Notes under the pieces: model-generated
Seen by the model: only the letters and a program-made list of their open reading frames with translations
What the model was told of the DNA's origin: nothing
The model's database searches: none
Part shown: in pieces, positions 27,278 through 58,979 of the stretch
Layout: each line of letters begins with the position of its first letter
Numbering within the stretch: position 1 is the first letter of the stretch
Translations under genes and position numbers: made by a program
IMG/VR virus record: IMGVR_UViG_3300046314_000711
Source of the DNA: a virus
Strand: one strand, 5' to 3'
DNA: 64,000 nucleotides

Positions 27278-27886
27278 ATGGTTGCACCTATTGTTGACGA
27301 TTTCACCGCTTTTGATCAATGCGCTCCACAAGATCGCAAGTGGTATGGCAAGCTCTACGTTGCTCGTTATTTTGGATACAACTGCGGGTCTGGTACAATT
27401 CGTGAGGATGGTGAGTGGATTGTTAGACCAATCACGAATCTGGCTGGACAAGGATTGGATGCTACGATTGGTTGGCACAGATCGGGTGATCCAATCCCAC
27501 CAAACTTTTTCTGGTGCGAGGTCTTCACAGGGCGGCACATCACGATTGACTACATTAGGTCTGGTGAAGGTTGGGTACAATCCCATACGTTCCAAGGGTT
27601 CAACACACAGGATGACCTAATCCGATTTAGTCATTGGAAGCGCGTGGATTATCCGTTCCCCTTGCCATCTGCGCTTCGGGGTGTCGAGAGCGATCACATC
27701 AATCTCGAACTAATAGGTGGGAACATAATCGAAGTGCATCTCCGTCCAAATAGCGATCCAGTCCAGTATGACGAGTTTTGGCCAATTTGGCGAGATGATC
27801 AACCGCCACCGTCATCAGGTAAGTGGGTACGCATCCAAGATCAAGTGACTCACATTGGTAGACTTGGTTTCTATGTTCCAGGTTGA
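27278..27886 (+). CDS. hypothetical protein, possibly ATP-grasp-like
   Basis: IVRPITNLAG, FWCEVFTGRHITIDY, INLELIGGNIIEVHLR. Confidence 0.5.
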   Translation: MVAPIVDDFTAFDQCAPQDRKWYGKLYVARYFGYNCGSGTIREDGEWIVRPITNLAGQGLDATIGWHRSGDPIPPNFFWCEVFTGRHITIDYIRSGEGWVQSHTFQGFNTQDDLIRFSHWKRVDYPFPLPSALRGVESDHINLELIGGNIIEVHLRPNSDPVQYDEFWPIWRDDQPPPSSGKWVRIQDQVTHIGRLGFYVPG

Positions 27887-27949
27887 GCACAAACTTGAAA
27901 TCAACTACATTAGACAAATCGGTTCAATAAAAAGTTTTTAAAAAGCCTG

Positions 27950-27978
27950 TTGACCAGATTTGAAAAGTGTGTTACATT
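27950..27978 (+). promoter_or_regulatory. sigma70 promoter of tRNA array 1
   Basis: TTGACC-17-TACATT; near-identical to the promoter at 56784. Confidence 0.75.
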
Positions 27979-28094
27979 AGACAAATCGGTTCACAAAAAG
28001 TTAAAAACTGACTGTTGAGCACAAATAGTTTACCAAATATAGTTAGCCTTTTGGCATTGAGCCATATATACATTAACAAAGAAAGTTTTTCCAA

Positions 28095-28199
28095 ATGTTT
28101 TCCTCTTCCGTGATTATTAGCAAACATACAATGAGCGAACGCTTTAGCGATCGTTCAGATGATATGTGCGCCCTTGTTCACGTCGGAGTAGAATTCTAA
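28095..28199 (+). CDS. attenuator leader peptide of tRNA array 1 (MFSSSVIISKHTMSERFSDRSDDMCALVHVGVEF)
   Basis: 34-codon ORF between promoter and terminator; codons mirror array 1 tRNAs; contains antiterminator strand. Confidence 0.8.
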   Translation: MFSSSVIISKHTMSERFSDRSDDMCALVHVGVEF

Positions 28200-28227
28200 A
28201 CAAAGAACTTCTCCAGAATGTAGAAAC

Positions 28228-28253
28228 AAGGGCTCCAAATAGGAGCCTTTTTT
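28228..28253 (+). terminator. attenuator terminator, array 1
   Basis: aagggctcc-aaata-ggagccttt plus T tract; 5' arm also pairs with 28170-28178. Confidence 0.9.
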
Positions 28254-28283
28254 ATTGCCTAATCGATCGAGGTTGGTGCAAAA

Positions 28284-28295
28284 GATCATTAAAAA
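28284..28295 (+). promoter_or_regulatory. boxA-like antitermination site
   Basis: gatcattaaaaa, similar to gttcattaaaaa/gttctttaaaaa elsewhere and to rrn boxA. Confidence 0.5.
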
Positions 28296-28311
28296 TTTGC
28301 GTGTGTTTTAT

Positions 28312-28386
28312 GGGGCCGTAATTTAGCGGCTAGAATATCCGGTTTTTACCCGGTCCACGAGGGTTCGAGTCCCTCCGGCCCCTCCA
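28312..28386 (+). tRNA. tRNA-Lys(TTT)
   Basis: ggggccg/cggcccc acceptor, loop ttTTTac, TTCGAG T-loop, CCA. Confidence 0.75.
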
Positions 28387-28430
28387 TTTCAAAGCGCATT
28401 CAGTGTGAGTGTGTTTCGACATGGATTTAT

Positions 28431-28504
28431 GGGATCGTAATTTAATAGAAAAATACCGTGCTGATAACGCGGCTTCGACGGAGCGTAACCGTCCGATCCT
28501 ACCA
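28431..28504 (+). tRNA. tRNA-Ile(GAT)
   Basis: ccgtg-ctGATaa-cgcgg; variant T-loop; CCA. Confidence 0.8.
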
Positions 28505-28513
28505 CCATAATAT

Positions 28514-28595
28514 TTGAGTAGTCGACTGTCGGTATCGGTCATTTCCCTTTCACGGAAACGCGTAAGCAGGGGTTCAACTCCCCCTACTCAAACCA
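28514..28595 (+). tRNA. tRNA-Glu(TTC)
   Basis: tttcc-ctTTCac-ggaaa; CCA. Confidence 0.8.
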
Positions 28596-28725
28596 CTTTT
28601 CTCGCTCATCCTGTGAAGGATCGGCTTCCCTCTGCCCTACCCTACTGCAAAGTGGATGGGTAGCACACCTCGCTTACTGACCGAGGTTTACCAAATAGTC
28701 AGTAAGAATTTGTAGGGTTGCCTGC

Positions 28726-28797
28726 AGTCTGTAAGTGTTCATAGACGCACATAGCACTGTCACTGCTAAAGAACGGGAGCATTACCCGTACAGACTG
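28726..28797 (+). tRNA. tRNA-Asp(GTC), no encoded CCA
   Basis: tagca-ctGTCac-tgcta; extended flanking stem. Confidence 0.75.
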
Positions 28798-29710
28798 CAG
28801 GCAACCTTAGTTGATGAGAAAATATGCATTCGTGGTTTGGTACTACTGCCCACCGAATTGGGTCATCACTCCGGTAGTACTTTTTACCTTTAATTTCAAT
28901 CCATGCGTTATATTTCGGAAGATAGAAGTCTGGATAATACTTTCCTGGCTTTCCAGTTGGATAAGTGAAAGTAAAGTATGTTGTAGAATTTTTCAGCCAT
29001 TCAATATTGTGTGAATCCAGTAATTTTGCAAATGCAAGTTCAGCGCCTGAGTCCATTTGTTGGTCTTTATATGTTGAGCGATGCACAATCGTAGAATTTG
29101 GTTGAAATCCTCCACCTCTTCGAGTTAATAGATAACATTCATTCGAGCAAGTATTTCGTGTCGTAGTAGCAAACGTTTTATTGCACACTTGACATTGTCT
29201 TACTTTTGAATATGGTCCTAGTATTGTACGTACCGCTGCTTTACCATTTTTCGGGTTACGAGAGTGACAGACCCAGATACCTTCTAGATGTAGTTTATAT
29301 ATTCCACCTGGATTTTTCATTACTCCTGCGCGAATTTTTTGCTTAGTTTCAACTGAATGAACATAATCCCTTGTAGCATTAGTGGCGATTCCTGCACAGG
29401 TGTGACTGCAAAATGTATTATGCCTATTATTATATGATAGTGGAGTAGAACATTGCTTGCATATTGTAGGATCATTAGTGTACTCACTACGTCGAATGCT
29501 AACATTACGCTTGTGAGTAGCTGTAGACTTATCTCGTCCTCTTGCGCCATTTGTGATATTTTTGAGTTTAACTTCTTCGGACACTAGTGAAACATCCGGA
29601 AAAGCAATTTTGAAAGTATCTGTAGTATGGGAGTGAGTTTTCAAGTGAGAATTTGTAAGCTGGTTAAATTGTCTAGTGCAAATTGGGCAGGTAATCATAC
29701 GTAATATCAA
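28766..29710 (-). mobile_element. free-standing homing endonuclease (Zn fingers + PD-(D/E)XK)
   Basis: CPIC...HLKTH, FCSHTC, YYPDFYLP...IEIKG; inserted antisense in tRNA array. Confidence 0.8.
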
Positions 29711-29760
29711 GAAGTTATAATGTATTTATGGGTTCGTCAACGAACGACCCCGCCAAATTA

Positions 29761-29836
29761 GGATCATTAGCTCAATTAGTAGAGCGCTTGTCTGTCGAAC
29801 AAGAGGTAGCCGGGGCAGAGCCGGTATGGTCCGCCA
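29761..29836 (+). tRNA. tRNA-Asp(GTC)
   Basis: cttgt-ctGTCga-acaag; GCCA end. Confidence 0.8.
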
Positions 29837-29910
29837 AATTAAGGATACTAACAGCAAATCCAAACAATTTGACTTTTCTTCAAACCTAAAGTGTATCCTG
29901 TTTAATTTGT

Positions 29911-29986
29911 GGAGCCAAGGCCAATCAAGTGATGGCGGCTGTTTGAAAAACAGTGCAGGTTGGAGCGTTACCAACTGGCTCTACCA
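29911..29986 (+). tRNA. tRNA-Phe(GAA)
   Basis: gctgt-ttGAAaa-acagt; CCA. Confidence 0.8.
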
Positions 29987-30001
29987 CGTTTTTTAATTTA
30001 A

Positions 30002-30089
30002 GGAAGAATATCTACACAAGGTGTAGCACTGTTTCGAAATCAGTTGGAGTCTGTAAGGGCTTGGGGAGCATTACCTCATTCTTCCGCCA
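30002..30089 (+). tRNA. tRNA-Ser(CGA)
   Basis: ttCGAaa loop, long variable arm, GCCA. Confidence 0.8.
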
Positions 30090-30097
30090 ATAGTCAT

Positions 30098-30171
30098 GTT
30101 GTTCCTAGTGTAGTGTCCGCACACCTGTCTGTGAAACAGGTAGAGAGGGTTAGATTCCCCGGTTCAACCCA
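30098..30171 (+). tRNA. tRNA-His(GTG)
   Basis: cctgt-ctGTGaa-acagg; G-1:C73; acceptor has T-T mismatches. Confidence 0.7.
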
Positions 30172-30221
30172 AATTATTACATTTGTACACAAATGTAAAT
30201 ATCGCTATAATTGATTTCACT

Positions 30222-30857
30222 ATGAAATTTTCTGAAATGTTTCCAGAAGTACAAGAGCTGTTTGAAATGCCGCAAAATGTATATCCAACGGAATTTGATC
30301 TAACAACTCCTACAAAAAATAAACATTTTGTTGATCAGTTTTTTGCGACGAAAAAAGCTGTAGCTATTAAGCAGTATGGCGATTACACACTGTACGAAGC
30401 TCCTCGCGCCTACGCATTGATTGATAATGACACAAAGCAAGTTGTGTACGCTGTACGATTTACACTCCAGAACAATACGTTTATTGGCCACCAGTGTGCT
30501 CAACAAGTGATGGTGTGGCGCAACACCAAAGTGTTTGAAACAGAGGGACTAGCGAAAGAAATCTTTTTCAATAGTTTGTTGCAACACTATAAAGTGATGA
30601 TCACTGATTCGATGCAGACGGAAGATGGTCAGCGATTTTGGGACAAGCGAATTCTCGAAGCACTTCGAATGGGGTTGAATGTGTATTACATTAGTCTCAT
30701 TCCTCCTCGTGAAATTACCAAAATCAATAACGACCGGGAGTATCAAGCGCTTGCATCAAGTAAAGAAATTTGGGGCAATGATAACAAACACCAGGCTCGC
30801 CGTCTCGTGATATCCTCGGTGCCACTATCGATTCGGTACAAACACATGGTCAGTTAG
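30222..30857 (+). CDS. late protein inserted in tRNA array, possible GNAT-like fold
   Basis: TAAATA at 30196; leader ending LFE; GLAKEIF...DSMQTEDGQRFW. Confidence 0.6.
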   Translation: MKFSEMFPEVQELFEMPQNVYPTEFDLTTPTKNKHFVDQFFATKKAVAIKQYGDYTLYEAPRAYALIDNDTKQVVYAVRFTLQNNTFIGHQCAQQVMVWRNTKVFETEGLAKEIFFNSLLQHYKVMITDSMQTEDGQRFWDKRILEALRMGLNVYYISLIPPREITKINNDREYQALASSKEIWGNDNKHQARRLVISSVPLSIRYKHMVS

Positions 30858-30921
30858 TTAAATGGTATAACTGCGGTTTCATACGCCACTGTCGCAAGTT
30901 CGATTCTTGCACTGACCACCA
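30848..30921 (+). tRNA. tRNA-Met/Ile2(CAT)
   Basis: ttCATac loop, ggtcagt/actgacc acceptor, CCA. Confidence 0.75.
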
Positions 30922-30985
30922 AGTATTTGTTGACTTTTGTGAAAAATAGGGTAAAATAACCATATTGACGAACAAAGGACACGAA

Positions 30986-31213
30986 ATGAAAACAACCTTC
31001 ACATCAGTTAATTACATTAAGACTTGTGGTGATCAGTATGCTAAGTGGTCACAAGGTAGTAATGCCGCAATTGATGCTGTGTTGATGGTAGTTACCGATG
31101 ACGCTGGTAATAAAGTGTACAGCGATTGCGTACGAAAAGGTGGAATGTTTATTCGTACGCTTGCTGACTGCAAACGAGCATTGCAAAGTAATTTCCGCAA
31201 TCGCTCTGTATAA
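30986..31213 (+). CDS. early hypothetical protein
   Basis: TTGACT promoter at 30930; AAGGA RBS. Confidence 0.6.
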   Translation: MKTTFTSVNYIKTCGDQYAKWSQGSNAAIDAVLMVVTDDAGNKVYSDCVRKGGMFIRTLADCKRALQSNFRNRSV

Positions 31214-31437
31214 TATAGTTGTTGACTTTTTGTAAAATAGGGTAGATAATAGACGCATATGACAAAAATCACTATTCACACTTGTGCTTACAAAGGTTTC
31301 CGCCACATCACCGTGGGCATATACCGCTAAACTGTTTGGGAAGTGCTGGAGCATTTTCTACAAAGGTCAATTGATCGGTGCTACACCAAAAGTTCGTCGC
31401 ATTGAGTTCATCATCGGGGAAACTCTGATTGCTTAAT

Positions 31438-31614
31438 ATGAACAAATACAAAGCTCTTGTCGCAAAATACGACTTCACACTGTGGTATGACCGCAGCCTA
31501 CGGTTGTGGGCGCTAACTGATAATAACGGTCAAAAAGATGCGTATTACTTCACCAAGCACTTGATTGCTTCAGTAACACTTGAAGAATTTGAAAACTTTC
31601 ACTTTAAAGATTAA
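31438..31614 (+). CDS. hypothetical protein
   Basis: Short ORF downstream of promoter at 31221. Confidence 0.45.
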   Translation: MNKYKALVAKYDFTLWYDRSLRLWALTDNNGQKDAYYFTKHLIASVTLEEFENFHFKD

Positions 31615-31615
31615 C

Positions 31616-31873
31616 ATGAAATACAAACAAACGATAATTGCAATCTCAGTCCACGCAGAGGGGGTTAATCCTATCTTTGGTGAAGGTGTTACACACGTTC
31701 GTTTGAATGACGAAGCTGGTGGGTACTTCATTGAATTGCAACAAAGTGATGATACTTCAGAAAATGGTGTTGTCAAGTTTGATCCAGCTGAATGGGATGA
31801 GCTCAACGCCGCAGTCAAGTCGCTGTTAGATAGTGTATCGATTGAAACTAATTCTACTGGTATAGTAATGTAA
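31616..31873 (+). CDS. hypothetical protein
   Basis: NPIFGEGVTHVRLNDEAGGYFI. Confidence 0.6.
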   Translation: MKYKQTIIAISVHAEGVNPIFGEGVTHVRLNDEAGGYFIELQQSDDTSENGVVKFDPAEWDELNAAVKSLLDSVSIETNSTGIVM

Positions 31874-31930
31874 GAATATTGGAAGTGTGCACCGTAGGTC
31901 TTACATAGATCATTGTAGTTGAGAGTTTGA

Positions 31931-32139
31931 ATGAAACAATGCCCAAAATGTGGAATTGCTGAATGGATGTACCAACCTGTCCCGTTAGTCTGTGACCATA
32001 TCGATGGTGATGGCGCTAACAATCAAATAAGTAACTTTAGACTAGTGTGATGCATTGTTGCCCACTTTTAAGAGTAAGAATAGAGGTAGAGGTCGTAAAT
32101 ACGACCGTGAGTACCAACGCAAGAAGAATTTGGGATAAA
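31931..32139 (+). pseudogene. HNH endonuclease remnant
   Basis: CPKCGIAEW...DHIDGDGANNQISNFRLV then stop; KSKNRGRGR tail continues beyond the break. Confidence 0.75.
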
Positions 32140-32220
32140 TGGCTGAGTGGTCTATAGCACTGCGCTTGAAACGCAGCGAATCGAAAGGTTCCGTGGGTTC
32201 GAATCCTACTTTATCCACCA
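32133..32220 (+). tRNA. tRNA-Ser(TGA)
   Basis: ctgcg-ctTGAaa-cgcag, long variable arm, CCA. Confidence 0.9.
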
Positions 32221-32224
32221 ATTT

Positions 32225-32315
32225 GGAGTGTATAGACCGACAGGGTTCGGCAGCTGTTTGGAAAACAGTTAACTGACGTAAGTTGGTTGTGATTCGATTT
32301 CACTACACTCCTCCA
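32225..32315 (+). tRNA. tRNA-Ser(GGA)
   Basis: gctgt-ttGGAaa-acagt, long variable arm, CCA. Confidence 0.8.
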
Positions 32316-32322
32316 AAAATGT

Positions 32323-32441
32323 AGCTGCTCCTGCTGGGTTGGGAGTCCTGAACAGGGTAGTAGCTGTTCGATTCAGTTGTACGTACTGTACGCGTAAATC
32401 CACACGGGACGGAGAGGTTCGAATCCTCTAGCAGCTTCACA
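32323..32441 (+). ncRNA. tRNA-like RNA with two T-loop hairpins
   Basis: agctgct/agcagct closing stem; T-hairpins at 32362-32378 and 32413-32429. Confidence 0.6.
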
Positions 32442-32447
32442 GTTAAT

Positions 32448-32522
32448 GCCATTGAAGTGTAGAAAGCGACACACTTGTTTCGTAATCAAGAGAGTGGTGG
32501 GCAGGTCACCACAATGGCACCA
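32448..32522 (+). tRNA. tRNA-Thr(CGT)
   Basis: ttCGTaa loop; gccattg/caatggc; CCA. Confidence 0.8.
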
Positions 32523-32595
32523 TCTATAAGAGTTTTCGTCCCCTGCGATAATTCTTTTAAATGGTCTGAAATAGTTTGACTATATAAGATTATAC

Positions 32596-32741
32596 GCCCT
32601 GATAGCAAAGAGGATAATGCACTCGCCTTTTCTGAGAGGATACAGACCTCTCTCCACAGGAGATTCTCACGAGTCTCCTGTCCAGGAGGATAACTCCAAA
32701 AGGTAAGCGAGAGACCGTCCGTTCGAATCGGACTCAGGGCA
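32596..32741 (+). ncRNA. tRNA-Arg-like body with ~70-nt structured insert in anticodon loop
   Basis: gccctga/tcagggc acceptor, GGATA D-loop, ctcgc/gcgag stem, gtccg-ttcgaat-cggac. Confidence 0.75.
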
Positions 32742-32752
32742 CACAAAATTTA

Positions 32753-32825
32753 GCCACCTTAGCTCATCTGGTAGAGTACTGGTTTTGTAATCCAGAGGTG
32801 GCCCGTTCGAGCCGGGCAGGTGGCA
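32753..32825 (+). tRNA. tRNA-Thr(TGT)
   Basis: ttTGTaa loop, canonical arms. Confidence 0.9.
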
Positions 32826-32834
32826 CATCACACT

Positions 32835-32908
32835 AGATCCTTAGTTTAAAAGAAGAACTCCATCCTTACACGGTGGTTGCGGCGGGGCGGTACCGTCAGG
32901 ATCTACCA
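32835..32908 (+). tRNA. tRNA-Val(TAC)
   Basis: ccatc-ctTACac-ggtgg; CCA. Confidence 0.8.
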
Positions 32909-32915
32909 AATTCAA

Positions 32916-32989
32916 GCTCAGTTATTTCAGTGGTAGAATAATTCTTTGGTAAGGAATAGACGGGAGTCCGATTCTCCCACAGAGCACCA
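32916..32989 (+). tRNA. tRNA-Thr(GGT)
   Basis: attct-ttGGTaa-ggaat; CCA. Confidence 0.8.
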
Positions 32990-32998
32990 CACATTTAC

Positions 32999-33075
32999 AC
33001 GACTGTATCATAACTGGATAATGACCAGCATTGCGAGTGCTGAGTATGGAGGTTCAAATCCTCTCGGTCGTACCA
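32999..33075 (+). tRNA. tRNA-Arg(GCG)
   Basis: cagca-ttGCGag-tgctg; GGATA D-loop; CCA. Confidence 0.8.
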
Positions 33076-33106
33076 ATAAATAAACACACGCAAATTTACA
33101 GAATAT

Positions 33107-33198
33107 GGTGGAATGACAGAGTTAGGCTTATTGTGCGTTCCTGCTAAGAACTGCGCTCCGAAGGGGGCACGAGGGTTCGAATCCCTCTTCTACCACCA
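33107..33198 (+). tRNA. tRNA-Ser(GCT)
   Basis: ctGCTaa loop, long variable arm, CCA. Confidence 0.88.
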
Positions 33199-34989: not shown

Positions 34990-37134
34990 ATGACAACCCC
35001 AGTCCAATTTGGTGGTCGTGACGCGCGTGTATATCAGGTACTAGCTCGCAATGAGGTATTGCAAGCACTCAAAGATGGTCACAGTCGAATCTGTGTTGTG
35101 TTACCGACAGGTTGCCATGCAGTTGATACGAAAATTTTAATGTATGACGGGTCAATCAAAGCTGTGCAGGATGTTGTAGTGGGTGATAGATTGATGGGCC
35201 CTGACAATCAGCCTCGTAATGTATTGCAGTTGGCTCGAGGTACTGAGCAGATGTATGATATCGTACCTAAGTCTGGTGACGTGTTTAGAGTCAATGGTGG
35301 TCACGTACTTTCGCTAAAAACCGTTAATGAAGGTACGAGTAAATGGCGACAAAGCCCTTGTTTTTTAACAGGAACTGAAGTTGTTAATGTTACTGTTACT
35401 GATTATTTGAGGTGGTCTACTGACAAAAAACGATTGCATAAAGCATATCTAGCTAACAAATTAGAATTTACTGAACAAAATCATAAAATCCCAGCATATT
35501 TAATGGGAGTATACCTCGGGGATGGAAGTAGTCGCTCGGGTGTTAGCATTACTACCATGGATGCTGAAATTGCAACAGAGTTGACAACATTTAATGATCT
35601 ACACAAACTCCGCACGATAAAACGTGAAATGCATACTCCAAATAAAGCGTCTGTGTATTTCCCTGCTGGTACAGGTCGTGTGGGAGATAATCTTTGGAGG
35701 AATGAGCTTAAACAGTTAAGCTTATTTGGGGTCACTTCTCATCATAAATTCATTCCACCTGTTTACAAAATTGGTAGTGTAGAACAGCGCTTGCAGTTGC
35801 TTGCTGGACTGATTGATACAGACGGTTCTGTCTCAAAAAACACAGTAGAGTATACAACAGTTAGCAAACAACTAGCGCAAGATGTGCAATTTGTGGCTCG
35901 TAGTTTGGGCTTTCGGTGCAATATTAAAGTATATGCTCGTAAGAATAATTACATATGCTACACAATGCATATATCAGGTGCGGGTCAAGAACTCATCCCC
36001 ACTCGATTAGCGAGGAAACAATTAACTGCACGAGCACAGCGTAAGGATGTTCTTAAAACGAGTTTTGAGGTCGTGCCTGTAGGTATTGAACAATATTATG
36101 GGTTTACTGTTGATGGGGATAATCTCTATGTTATGGGAAATTTTTTCGTAACCCACAATAGCGGTAAAACACTTACCGCTGGTATTATCATGGTCGCATC
36201 CGAATTACGTACCATTCTTGGTATTCCAGTTGGTCAACCTCTCCGCGTCCTAATGATTGCTCATAGGCATCGTTTACTGAAGCAAGCTGAAGACTCATAC
36301 AGCGCTGCAGGCATTACCGTGATCAAAGACCACAAAAATACGCCATTTCAAGTGGGGTTCACAGGTACTTGCGACAGTGTTGTCGTGTTTAATACACTAT
36401 CTACGTTCAGTGACGTACCAAAGGATCTCTGTTGGGATATTGCCATTTTGGATGAGTGTCATCACGAGAGTTGCCTGACATTTCAATATAAGCTAGAGCA
36501 AATTAGCGCCAAACCGATCATTGGTCTTACAGCAACTCCGTTGAGAGCGGATGGAGTATTGTGCAAATTCTCGAAATTCGTCGAAACGATCTCTCGTGAA
36601 GACGCTGTCGCAGCTGGTTACCTTGCGGATAGTCACCTATATTCATTCATTGACTCCCCAGCCCGTGAGCACGTTGACATGGTGATGGATATCATCAACC
36701 TCAAACAAAGTGTGCTCGGTCAGACGATGGTATTCGTCCGCACAAAGCAGGAAGCGATTGACGTCACCTCTCGTCTCGAAAAGCTGGGACTGACAGCAGT
36801 TGCTCTTGTCAATATCAAGGAAAAAACACTGAACGAAGAACTGGCTAATTTCGAAAAAGGTGCAGTGCAGTTTGTAGTGTCATGCAATAAAATTGGTGAA
36901 GGTACAGATGTCAAGGGTTGTGAGAGTGTGATTATTGGGCGTACTACACAAAGCTTGCCACTGCTATCGCAAGTTATTGGACGCTCGGCACGGAATGATT
37001 GCGAATCTCACATCTATGAGATTATTAACCCACTATCCAACAGCAACATTACAGCTAGTGATATACTGAAGCCGCAGCTGCATGAAATCTGGTACAAAGT
37101 TCGCCAACAGTGGCGTCACCACACTGTTGTTTGA
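34990..37134 (+). CDS. SF2 DExH helicase with intein
   Basis: LPTG|SGKT Walker A, DECHH, GLTATP, EGTD, QVIGRSAR. Confidence 0.9.
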   Translation: MTTPVQFGGRDARVYQVLARNEVLQALKDGHSRICVVLPTGCHAVDTKILMYDGSIKAVQDVVVGDRLMGPDNQPRNVLQLARGTEQMYDIVPKSGDVFRVNGGHVLSLKTVNEGTSKWRQSPCFLTGTEVVNVTVTDYLRWSTDKKRLHKAYLANKLEFTEQNHKIPAYLMGVYLGDGSSRSGVSITTMDAEIATELTTFNDLHKLRTIKREMHTPNKASVYFPAGTGRVGDNLWRNELKQLSLFGVTSHHKFIPPVYKIGSVEQRLQLLAGLIDTDGSVSKNTVEYTTVSKQLAQDVQFVARSLGFRCNIKVYARKNNYICYTMHISGAGQELIPTRLARKQLTARAQRKDVLKTSFEVVPVGIEQYYGFTVDGDNLYVMGNFFVTHNSGKTLTAGIIMVASELRTILGIPVGQPLRVLMIAHRHRLLKQAEDSYSAAGITVIKDHKNTPFQVGFTGTCDSVVVFNTLSTFSDVPKDLCWDIAILDECHHESCLTFQYKLEQISAKPIIGLTATPLRADGVLCKFSKFVETISREDAVAAGYLADSHLYSFIDSPAREHVDMVMDIINLKQSVLGQTMVFVRTKQEAIDVTSRLEKLGLTAVALVNIKEKTLNEELANFEKGAVQFVVSCNKIGEGTDVKGCESVIIGRTTQSLPLLSQVIGRSARNDCESHIYEIINPLSNSNITASDILKPQLHEIWYKVRQQWRHHTVV
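35113..36159 (+). mobile_element. intein with LAGLIDADG endonuclease (349 aa)
   Basis: CHAVDTKILMYDG start, YLGDG and LAGLIDTDG, ends VTHN/S. Confidence 0.95.
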
Positions 37135-56713: not shown

Positions 56714-56892
56714 TTGACCCACTTTTCAAAATGTGTTACATTTAACTTATCGGTTCGCAAGAATGAAAGTTTGAACTAACCTGTTGACCAGATTTCGAAA
56801 ATGTGTTACATTAGACAAATCGGTTGATAAAAAAGATTTTTCTCCTAAACCATGAAAAATCGTTGACCACAAGAAGAGTTTGCATATATACT
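56714..56892 (+). promoter_or_regulatory. tandem sigma70 promoters of tRNA array 2
   Basis: TTGACC-17-TACATT at 56714 and 56784; TTGACC..TATACT at 56863. Confidence 0.75.
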
Positions 56893-56929
56893 TAAAAGAC
56901 TGATTAATTTAACTTAAAGAGAAACTAAA

Positions 56930-57037
56930 ATGAACGCCGTATTACTGAATCAACAACCGCTCTGTGCGCAACCGAATTATTGGTTGCAGCAAGCCTTTGT
57001 GCATTCGTTTTCCGCTAGTTCTGTAGAGACTCTCTAA
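56930..57037 (+). CDS. attenuator leader peptide of tRNA array 2 (MNAVLLNQQPLCAQPNYWLQQAFVHSFSASSVETL)
   Basis: 35-codon ORF with AAAGAG RBS; codons mirror array 2 tRNAs; contains antiterminator strand. Confidence 0.8.
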   Translation: MNAVLLNQQPLCAQPNYWLQQAFVHSFSASSVETL

Positions 57038-57065
57038 TAGAATAAAAAGCAAAAACAAATTTCAC

Positions 57066-57093
57066 AAGGGCTCCCTACAAGGAGCCCTTTTTT
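57066..57093 (+). terminator. attenuator terminator, array 2
   Basis: aagggctcc-ctacaa-ggagccctt plus T tract; 5' arm also pairs with 56992-57001. Confidence 0.9.
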
Positions 57094-57120
57094 ATTGAGC
57101 GATCGTGCACAATAAAGTGA

Positions 57121-57133
57121 TGTTCATTAAAAA
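57121..57133 (+). promoter_or_regulatory. boxA-like site
   Basis: tgttcattaaaaa. Confidence 0.6.
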
Positions 57134-57152
57134 TTAAAGAATATTGTAGTGC

Positions 57153-57225
57153 AGAGTGTTGGTGTAATTGGCAACATACAGAATTCCAAATTCTGCTGAT
57201 TTCAGTTCGAATCTGAAGCGCTCTG
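57153..57225 (+). tRNA. tRNA-Trp(CCA)
   Basis: cagaa-ttCCAaa-ttctg; canonical T arm. Confidence 0.85.
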
Positions 57226-57260
57226 CACTGCAATATTTGCGAAGAAATAGTTTTCTTTGT

Positions 57261-57344
57261 CCGTGTATAGGCTAGCCTGGTCAAGTCACTCGTTTTGGGG
57301 GCGAGAGTAGTAATACATCGCTGGTTCGAATCCAGCTACACGGA
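57261..57344 (+). tRNA. tRNA-Pro(TGG), long variable region
   Basis: ctcgt-ttTGGgg-gcgag; C1-G72, A73. Confidence 0.8.
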
Positions 57345-57360
57345 CAAAGAAAATTAATAT

Positions 57361-57445
57361 GGGGTGTTATACCGTTAAAGAGACGGTCCGGATTGTAAAC
57401 CCGGCGCTTTAAGCTCAGATGGAGCATTACCATCACACCCCACCA
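57361..57445 (+). tRNA. tRNA-Tyr(GTA)
   Basis: ttGTAaa loop, variable arm, CCA. Confidence 0.82.
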
Positions 57446-57463
57446 AAAATTAGTAATCTGTGC

Positions 57464-57538
57464 TGTGGTAGAGGCGTCTTGGTGACAACCGCGGAACTGT
57501 TAATTCCGATTAGCGTGTATCGTTCACACGTACCACAG
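57464..57538 (+). tRNA. tRNA-Asn(GTT)
   Basis: cggaa-ctGTTaa-ttccg; G73. Confidence 0.75.
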
Positions 57539-57563
57539 CACAGATTACTTAATAAAGCATTGC

Positions 57564-57645
57564 TGGCATATAGCTCGGTTGGTAGAGCGCTCAGTCTGGA
57601 CCTGAGAGACGCACATAAGTCGTATACATAGGTTTGAATGCTACT
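57564..57645 (+). pseudogene. degenerate tRNA (possibly Gln CTG)
   Basis: Good D arm and ctcag/ctgag stem around tCTGgac; T arm and acceptor 3' strand decayed. Confidence 0.5.
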
Positions 57646-57663
57646 AACGAAGTCAGTATTTTT

Positions 57664-57738
57664 CTCGGTAAAGCGTTGATGGCGTCGCACGTGTTTTGGG
57701 AACATGAGGGGAAGTTTCGAGCACTTCTACCGAGACCA
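57664..57738 (+). tRNA. tRNA-Pro(TGG)
   Basis: cgtgt-ttTGGga-acatg; CCA. Confidence 0.8.
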
Positions 57739-57746
57739 AGTTTTAT

Positions 57747-57818
57747 GGGGGCAGCAGTGGGCTGCGGTTCTGCCTTGCAAGTAGAATGTCTAGTGGGATT
57801 CGATTTCCCCGGCCTCCA
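57747..57818 (+). tRNA. tRNA-Ala(TGC)
   Basis: tctgc-ctTGCaa-gtaga; G3:U70. Confidence 0.7.
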
Positions 57819-57871
57819 CACATTTTCGGATAGCACCTTGCTATCTCTCAATCCACTGAATAGGTCGGTGG

Positions 57872-58150
57872 CGTGTTAATCGACTCTGCACACGCAGGGT
57901 TTTCAGTATCTACGATAAAGGTACGGCTAAGTTGTAATGCTAAAGAATTTATGCGCGATATGTCGAAAAGTGAGACAACTGCCTTTGACGCAGTACCAAA
58001 GAAGGGGCAGTACCTTCATCGCGTTCCAACTTATAGGAGATACTGTGAAAGCATTTGGTTCTAAACGAGCATACCACGACTGCCGAGTTTATCGTGCAGG
58101 ACGTGGTAAAAAGATCCTCTTCACCACTGGTGTCAAGAGTCGCAAACACG
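57872..58150 (+). ncRNA. unknown ~280-nt structured RNA
   Basis: Nested helices cgtgtt/aacacg, cgactct/agagtcg, cagtatct/agatactg, aaggtac/gtacctt. Confidence 0.55.
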
Positions 58151-58198
58151 GTCGCAAGACTGTAATATTGCAAGATGGTGAGAATTGATAGAGATTGC

Positions 58199-58278
58199 GC
58201 CCCTGTTGACAAATTGGAAAAGTCGTCTTTTTTAGAAAAAGAAATATTTTGCAGGTTCGAAGCCTGTCGGGGGCACCA
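58199..58278 (+). tRNA. tRNA-Leu(TAG)
   Basis: tcttt-ttTAGaa-aaaga; CCA. Confidence 0.8.
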
Positions 58279-58299
58279 AGTTTACAAGGAGATCGCAAT

Positions 58300-58470
58300 A
58301 TGAGCAAAAACGCAAAAAAGATCGCAGTACTAGAATCACGTATTGCAGAGTTGGAAGCAGAAATGAAGATGTCACTTCAAAGGAAGTTGTCTGGTAAGGT
58401 GGCATTTGATGTACCTGGCTGTCTTCGCAAGATTGCCGATCTGCGTAAAGATGTCAGCAACCTGAAGTGA
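58300..58470 (+). CDS. small coiled-coil protein in tRNA array
   Basis: AAGGAG RBS, 56 aa. Confidence 0.65.
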   Translation: MSKNAKKIAVLESRIAELEAEMKMSLQRKLSGKVAFDVPGCLRKIADLRKDVSNLK

Positions 58471-58500
58471 GAGTGCGATGCCATCATAATGATGGCACTA

Positions 58501-58684
58501 TTTTATGTCGTAGATTAGTGGAACCTGGAAAGCATCCGTACAAATGTGGACTGGAGGGCGCAACGAGTTGTTTGAAGCTAGTGGAGTGGCCACAAAGCCA
58601 GCAGAATCAATCTTCGTATGCTTAAATCGCTGTTCTTGGGTGAACGGAGACACTGTGTTGTGTAATGGTGCAGTCGACATAAAA
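58501..58684 (+). ncRNA. unknown ~185-nt RNA
   Basis: ttttatgtcg/cgacataaaa closing stem; no credible ORF. Confidence 0.45.
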
Positions 58685-58697
58685 TAGTTATAATTTT

Positions 58698-58780
58698 GCG
58701 AGTGTGGTGGAACGGGATACACTACTGTCTTAAACGCAGTCGCCCGTAAGGGATTGAGGGTTCGAGTCCCTCCACTCGCA
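58698..58780 (+). tRNA. tRNA-Leu(TAA)
   Basis: actgt-ctTAAac-gcagt, long variable arm. Confidence 0.9.
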
Positions 58781-58801
58781 CACATTTTTAGACTTTATTG
58801 A

Positions 58802-58885
58802 GTAGGCGTGGCAGAGCGGTCGAATGCGCGGGATTGCAATCCCCGATCCTTAAAGGACACGTCAGTTCAAATCTGACCGCCTACT
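58802..58885 (+). tRNA. tRNA-Cys(GCA), long variable arm
   Basis: ttGCAat loop; U73. Confidence 0.82.
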
Positions 58886-58902
58886 CAATAAAGTTTTTAT
58901 AT

Positions 58903-58979
58903 GCCCCCGTACGCTAAGAGGTAGTGCGACTGGACTTAAAATTTAGTGGCTGGGAGTTCGAATCTCCACTTCTTCACCA
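58903..58979 (+). pseudogene. chimeric tRNA-Leu(TAA)
   Basis: ctTAAaa loop and T arm present, but acceptor strands do not pair. Confidence 0.6.

Follow-up and report, generated by a model that had tools for sequence, protein, structure and literature searches.

Predicted leader-peptide attenuators ahead of two phage tRNA arrays carry codons that match the tRNAs downstream

The window analysed here, a stretch of 64,000 nucleotides of an uncultured giant phage from the IMG/VR virus record IMGVR_UViG_3300046314_000711, carries two tRNA arrays with no amino acid in common, and each array is preceded by a short ORF whose first residues are drawn from the amino acids that the array itself serves. 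We propose, with a probability of about 0.7, that each tRNA array is under the control of a leader-peptide attenuator that senses the decoding of exactly its codons. An earlier note on this DNA had put forward an attenuation architecture of the trp/his/ilv type ahead of the first array; we find this architecture (promoter, short ORF, region 2 hairpin, antiterminator and terminator) twice, with complementary codon sets in the two leaders.

Cassettes, arrays and the composition of the leaders

The components of the two cassettes and of the arrays are collected in Table 1. For cassette 1, upstream of array 1, the earlier description was recovered part by part: the promoter placed at 27950 is present as one of three tandem sites; the 34-codon ORF is found both in the sequence and in the ORF list; the hairpin proposed at 28132-28157 is recovered by folding; the segment gcccttgtt is the exact 9-base complement of region 3, which overlaps the 5' arm of the terminator; the strong terminator after the ORF is predicted, with a G+C-rich stem of 9 pairs followed by six T; and a boxA-like motif lies ahead of the array, in the gap between the terminator and the first tRNA. 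The motifs of both cassettes are degenerate against the boxA consensus.

Array 1 contains 15 tRNAs for exactly eleven amino acids (K, I, E, D, F, H, M, S, T, V and R). ARAGORN at its default setting gives just 10 tRNAs for this array; Ile-GAT, Asp-GTC, Phe-GAA, Thr-CGT and Val-TAC were added by relaxed ARAGORN together with Rfam. The earlier claims that the amino acids of the leader 1 head are those of the array, and that an array anticodon exists for every head codon, both hold against this 15-tRNA inventory: the 24 residues of the head include all eleven amino acids and none besides (11/11), and 24/24 head codons are readable by array 1 anticodons under standard wobble rules.

A cassette of the same build (56714-57135) precedes array 2. 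In its leader, residues 2-22 consist of N, A, L, Q, P, C, Y and W, that is, all eight amino acids of array 2, and one Val, the sole codon of which is served by array 1; three Ala/Leu codons of leader 2 end in C and need four-way wobble by a U34 tRNA. The Gln-TTG tRNA of array 2 (57953-58027) was missed by the tRNA callers and gives a complete cloverleaf on folding. Gly has no tRNA in either array of the window and is absent from both leader heads.

The antiterminator strand and the terminator are common to both cassettes, the two terminators being nearly identical; the tails of the leaders are alike and the heads unlike, because the conserved antiterminator strand begins at the boundary between head and tail. 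Comparison of the antiterminator pairs by eye (MAFFT misaligned region 2 of cassette 2) showed that the last pair between regions 2 and 3 is U-A in cassette 1 and G-C in cassette 2, a compensatory change, and that one C-G pair of cassette 1 is U-G in cassette 2. A 19-base unit repeated at 27906, 27973 and 56807 ties the first promoter of cassette 1 to the others.

Table 1. Coordinates of predicted features in the window and in related contigs (contig handle before the colon)
Feature	Coordinates	Strand	Basis or detail
Three tandem sigma-70-like promoters, predicted (cassette 1)	27883-27911, 27950-27978, 28015-28043	+	Promoter prediction and repeat
Leader ORF 1, 34 codons, ATG start	28095-28199	+	ORF list
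Sensing head of leader ORF 1, codons 1-24	28095-28166	+	
Region 1-region 2 hairpin within ORF 1, core 28132-28157	28109-28185	+	Minimum-free-energy fold, -26.9 kcal/mol
Region 2, antiterminator strand (cassette 1)	28170-28178	+	Exact complement of 28225-28233 (9 bases)
Region 3 (28225-28233), overlapping predicted intrinsic terminator (cassette 1)	28225-28256	+	Stem 28228-28250, T run to 28256
boxA-like motif between terminator and first tRNA (cassette 1)	28284-28297	+	Degenerate vs. consensus
tRNA array 1: Lys, Ile, Glu, Asp, Phe, His, Met, Ser x3, Thr x3, Val, Arg, with interspersed ORFs	28312-33198	+	
Three tandem promoters, predicted (cassette 2)	56714-56890	+	-35 hexamers at 56714, 56784, 56863
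Leader ORF 2, 35 codons, internal hairpin	56930-57037	+	
Region 2 (cassette 2)	56993-57001	+	Pairs with 57063-57071; antiterminator hairpin -26.9 kcal/mol
Region 3 and predicted terminator (cassette 2)	57063-57093	+	9-pair stem 57066-57089, T run 57088-57093
boxA-like motif (cassette 2)	57124-57135	+	Degenerate vs. consensus
tRNA array 2: Trp, Pro x2, Tyr, Asn, Ala, Gln, Leu x2, Cys, Leu-like without D arm	57153-58976	+	
Leader 1 orthologues	L001:6270-6374, L110:6819-6923		34 codons, stop position as in leader 1
Extra strong promoter-like sites in single-array relatives	L113:10780-11000, L202:10690-10900, L208:2420-2600		

The phage's own amino-acid frequencies give set 1, the amino acids of array 1, a share of 0.58 and set 2, those of array 2, a share of 0.36. 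With these frequencies, the binomial probability is 3.5e-6 for the leader 1 head (23/23 in set) and 1.6e-8 for the leader 2 head (at least 20/21 in set), and coverage of every member of the set adds a factor of 0.11 for set 1 and 0.20 for set 2. The two heads tabulated against the two sets (23 in and 0 out vs. 1 and 20) give a Fisher p=1.2e-11; the whole ORFs, for which no boundary is chosen, give p=3.1e-6. Of the 127,864 windows obtained from the six frames of the 64 kb, the leader 1 head is the only 23-residue window that lies entirely in set 1, and the leader 2 head is the top window for set 2, with a runner-up at 19/21. Taken singly, leader 1 is just moderately extreme, because four other places in the same six-frame windows reach 22/23; given the second cassette and the relatives described below, chance is untenable. 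The caveat of a post hoc boundary that the earlier note attached to its estimate of about 1e-6 can be dropped, because the boundary of the sensing head is structural, being set by the start of the conserved antiterminator strand.

The arrays have several further features. Many of the phage tRNAs have good cloverleaves, encoded CCA ends and T loops without the usual T-psi-C (28431-28504, 29761-29836, 29911-29986, 32448-32522, 32835-32908, 57361-57445 and 57953-58027); these escape either the ARAGORN default or the Rfam gathering threshold, and the Gln tRNA escapes both. A long variable arm is normally the body type of Leu, Ser and Tyr tRNAs; in array 2, it is found in the Pro-TGG (57261-57345) and Cys-GCA (58802-58886) tRNAs, which are 84-85 bases long. 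The Leu-TAA-like tRNA without a D arm lies at 58918-58976. The ORFs within array 1 at 28766-29710 (minus strand) and 30183-30857 may be genes of mobile elements, and a helicase gene at 34990-37134 (ResIII, Helicase_C) is split by an intein, in which Hint and LAGLIDADG homing-endonuclease domains are recognised. A perfect 16-base inverted match (28293-28308 and 33082-33097; blastn-short E=5e-4) has one arm just before the first tRNA of array 1 and the other between the last two tRNAs; by comparison with rRNA operons, it may form a long-range processing stem that brackets the array transcript.

Leaders and arrays in related phages

Two close relatives were available: L001, an 82-kb IMG/VR contig estimated to cover 23% of its genome, which implies a phage of ~350 kb, and a second phage from a metagenome (L109 and L110). 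In both, a cassette 1 orthologue stands before an array with the same eleven amino acids. Five positions vary between the heads of L001 and L110 and that of leader 1, and 6/6 of the replaced residues stay within the set of eleven; among these in-set changes, Phe and Ser exchange places. The tails of the same leaders keep only the four codons of the antiterminator strand and otherwise drift, with residues such as Gln and Trp among the changes. The length of the ORF is exact, codons are replaced as a whole, and no stop or frameshift has appeared at a divergence of ~20%. A cassette 2 orthologue was not found in either relative, the contigs of both of which stop short of that region. L110 also has a weak, oddly folded tRNA-like gene (Gly-ACC, called at a relaxed threshold), a possible member from outside the set.

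Three distant relatives (L113, L202 and L208) have one array only, whose 26-28 tRNAs cover nearly every amino acid; a neighbouring protein in L113 and L202 is 56-58% identical to that of the window. Their leaders are homologous, 33 codons long, and share Lys-His at codons 10-11 with leader 1, and they contain 19, 19 and 20 different amino acids (L113, L202 and L208, respectively). At least 19 different amino acids occur in a fraction of 0.005 of the 33-residue protein windows of this phage and 20 in 0/16,081, and random draws of this composition give 20 with a frequency of 0.001. Between the single-array leaders, residues are swapped or relocated rather than lost (Leu-Gln to Gln-Leu; Trp from codon 27 to codon 23), through many whole-codon changes and with no indel or stop. 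Gly is present in these leaders, and a tRNA-Gly was called in one of the phages, L202.

These comparisons suggest that leader composition follows array content: split arrays go with split leaders that lack Gly, and a full array goes with a near-complete leader that includes Gly. The proposal in the earlier note that homologous leaders should track the downstream tRNA content is supported in the relatives with such leaders (L001, L110, L113, L202 and L208). The same comparisons weigh on another reading, in which the ORFs are chance frames or encode small peptides with no part in regulation, and the leader is non-coding, its hairpins serving as ordinary terminators or as signals for RNA processing. 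The weak ribosome-binding site, the predicted status of leader translation, and the four other places at 22/23 for set 1 all fit this reading; the joint statistics of the two cassettes, the preservation of exact ORF length with whole-codon replacement and no stop or frameshift at ~20% divergence, and the covariation of composition with array content in the relatives do not, and we regard it as very improbable.

The surroundings of the leaders vary more widely. L196 and L206, which are more distant still, have a promoter and a near-consensus boxA before the array and no attenuator module; the module appears to be a discrete add-on, because these distant phages have promoter, boxA and array without it. 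In the corresponding position, the motifs of relatives come nearer to the rrn boxA consensus than that of the window. The single-array relatives have two more promoter-like sites after the attenuator terminator and before boxA, so that 1/3 of their promoters lie under attenuator control vs. 3/3 in the window; judged from their position, the extra promoters would bypass the switch.

Cassette 1, cassette 2 and the single-array leader have no blastn match in 50,697 phage records; a pattern scan for the cassette found one relative in IMG/VR and one more in JGI metagenomes, neither of which, as scanned, contained the window itself, and the pattern of the single-array leader has no match in IMG/VR. 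A looser pattern gave ~100 chance matches, of which only the one already known adjoined tRNAs. Searches that started from two neighbouring proteins, the SLOG protein encoded upstream of cassette 2 and the DUF6900 protein encoded downstream of array 1, brought up no arrays, and the 206-residue upstream protein is widespread, with no nearby array at 80 IMG/VR loci. The nearest cultured relatives by tail sheath (~41% identity) are the Xanthomonas phages Xoo-sp13 and XacN1 and the Stenotrophomonas phage CM1, in none of which a crude scan that recovered all known cassettes found one.

Other genes of translation accompany the arrays of the relatives. Ribosomal protein L33, SmpB and a tmRNA with its tag peptide (ARAGORN) lie beside arrays (L110:13045-13215, L110:15167-15589 and L200:1785-2170), and a tRNA with a CTA anticodon (an amber suppressor, labelled Pyl by ARAGORN) lies inside a relative's single array (L202:12189 and L203:12438).

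Folding and the geometry of the predicted switch

The minimum-free-energy folds of both window leaders contain the in-ORF hairpin and the terminator (z-scores of -5.2 and -3.4). The alternative antiterminator hairpin of cassette 1 has a predicted energy of -24.6 kcal/mol; across the leaders, antiterminator hairpins range from -16 to -29 kcal/mol and terminators from -10 to -24 kcal/mol. Equilibrium folds with the full terminator do not discriminate between stall positions, the terminator winning at most of them, which holds for trp as well. Because the terminator wins at equilibrium for most stall positions, the modelled switch must be kinetic, as in trp.

The alternative folds were therefore computed for the transcript before region 4 exists, with a 30-base ribosome footprint masked codon by codon, for six leaders (all except that of L208). 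With a ribosome at codons 1 to ~17 in the window type, or 1 to ~26 in the single-array type, regions 2 and 3 are predicted to stay paired. Further along, at about codons 22-33, the ribosome covers region 2. The in-set head overshoots the modelled effective sensing zone by 3-6 codons. The leaders have a weak Shine-Dalgarno match, and most genes of this phage are also without one.

The two types differ in where translation ends. The single-array relatives have the trp geometry, with a stop codon that falls within region 2, and a finishing ribosome masks the antiterminator. In the window type, 19-33 bases separate region 2 from the stop codon, which is found in the apical part of the antiterminator hairpin; a ribosome at the stop leaves region 2 uncovered, and a simple fold again allows regions 2 and 3 to pair. 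On steric grounds, a finishing ribosome that sits inside the antiterminator hairpin should hold its strands apart.

The same folds allow a reversed, feed-forward logic to be considered, in which efficient translation of the leader opens the in-ORF hairpin, releases region 2 and favours readthrough, so that the tRNA genes would be transcribed only as long as decoding succeeds. Cassette 1 without a ribosome would suit it, with region 2 sequestered in the internal hairpin and the terminator free to form, as would the renewed pairing of regions 2 and 3 when a ribosome stands at the stop codon of the window type. However, in cassette 2 and in the single-array relatives the footprint folds form the antiterminator even without a ribosome, the stop codon of the single-array relatives lets a finishing ribosome mask the antiterminator, and positive feedback gives no reason for the match between codons and array. 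We therefore consider the reversed logic quite unlikely, and favour a switch that opens when decoding of the leader fails.

Such an attenuator would act as follows. Transcripts from the tandem promoters would start with the 34- or 35-codon ORF; when all head codons are read promptly, the ribosome would run into the antiterminator hairpin, region 3 would be available to pair with region 4 as the terminator, and transcription would stop before boxA and the tRNA genes. When any tRNA used in the head is scarce, the ribosome would stall upstream, regions 2 and 3 would pair, no terminator would form, and the polymerase would read through into the array. The new tRNAs would restore decoding and close the switch, which amounts to product feedback for each array, and the boxA-like site past the terminator would act only on polymerases already through the switch. 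We infer that the leaders are translated, and likewise infer the kinetics of the switch, its direction of response in vivo and its natural trigger. As the trigger we favour a loss of host tRNAs, by shut-off or by cleavage through defence nucleases, or a passage through hosts with different tRNA pools; a role against amino-acid starvation is unlikely, because additional tRNA would do nothing for a lack of amino acids.

On a more generic reading, the leaders might sense overall ribosome or elongation capacity through the coupling of translation to termination, or might serve purely for product shut-off by the phage tRNAs, with the codon match merely letting those tRNAs read the leader. Each amino acid occurs just a few times in a leader (1-6 times), which by analogy would give weaker leverage than the codon runs of his or phe leaders; any slowdown upstream of region 2 leads to the same predicted fold; and the promoters past the terminator in the relatives imply that the switch only trims expression. 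A generic sensor, however, needs neither two complementary codon sets for two arrays nor the retention of 19-20 different amino acids in 33 codons through substitutions, and we consider it unlikely. Within the sensing of specific codons, we lean towards a homeostatic circuit in giant phages, in which the leader of each array works as a roster that detects which part of decoding has failed and turns on the matching set only, and in which the partition of the arrays and the composition of the leaders co-evolve.

Known attenuators and the regulation of phage tRNA genes

The closest likeness is to the leaders of amino-acid operons. Those of ilvGMEDA (Ile/Leu/Val), thr (Thr/Ile), trp, his, leu, pheA and pheST likewise have a short ORF with product-matched codons between the promoter and the regulated genes, and mutually exclusive hairpins (1-2, 2-3 and 3-4) followed by an intrinsic terminator with a U run; there, as predicted here, a stall upstream leads to the antiterminator. 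The differences are as follows: operon leaders regulate biosynthetic enzymes or synthetases, whereas the phage cassettes would regulate tRNAs; operon leaders contain runs of one to three amino acids, whereas the phage leaders sample 8, 11 or up to 20 amino acids once to a few times; and, unlike operon leaders, the cassettes are phage-encoded, have a boxA-like site past the terminator and, in the window type, a stop codon well past region 2. None of the Rfam leader families (Trp, His, Leu, Thr and Phe) matches at its gathering threshold; the only match to them, Phe_leader on cassette 2 (56976-57095), scores 32.9 bits vs. a cut-off of 55, mostly from the terminator. By analogy, the cassettes would work like the multivalent ilv and thr attenuators, yet they stand outside the Rfam leader families and would control stable-RNA genes.

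Two other systems share single features. T-box riboswitches likewise sense the state of tRNA and switch between a terminator and an antiterminator upstream of translation-related genes; however, their ligand is uncharged tRNA itself, which they recognise by a specifier codon and the T-box sequence and with no translation, whereas the phage cassettes have an ORF, and Rfam gives no T-box match in the cassettes. The rrn-type boxA (NusB/NusE) likewise places a boxA-like motif ahead of stable-RNA genes; it makes polymerase resistant to termination and senses nothing, whereas in the phage cassettes it is located after the attenuator.

The reasons for which phages carry tRNA genes have been a matter of debate for decades and, to our knowledge, the regulation of these genes is essentially unknown. 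A search of the full-text literature, with most subscription journals outside its scope, found no description of an attenuator or leader peptide that controls phage tRNA genes. In their available text, recent papers on phage tRNAs concern the function of the tRNAs (eLife 2023, PMC10264068; Nature 2024, PMC11464382; Nat Commun 2024, PMC11555353). The codon-supply and counter-defence devices treated there, to the extent of that text, have the same cargo, namely tRNA sets that replace depleted or cleaved host tRNAs, and would provide a plausible purpose for the cassettes.

In conclusion, our analysis points to the control of phage tRNA arrays by leader peptides whose codons are those of the arrays. 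If this is true, phage tRNAs would be made on demand, the phage would monitor the decoding of specific codons, and the grouping of tRNA genes into arrays would be a regulatory partition. Leader-peptide attenuation would then reach beyond metabolic and synthetase genes to include stable-RNA genes, and the number of amino acids sensed would rise from between one and three to as many as twenty. Both cassettes are compact and self-contained, have promoters of the sigma-70 type, and may serve as reporters of the tRNA depletion caused by anticodon-nuclease defences.
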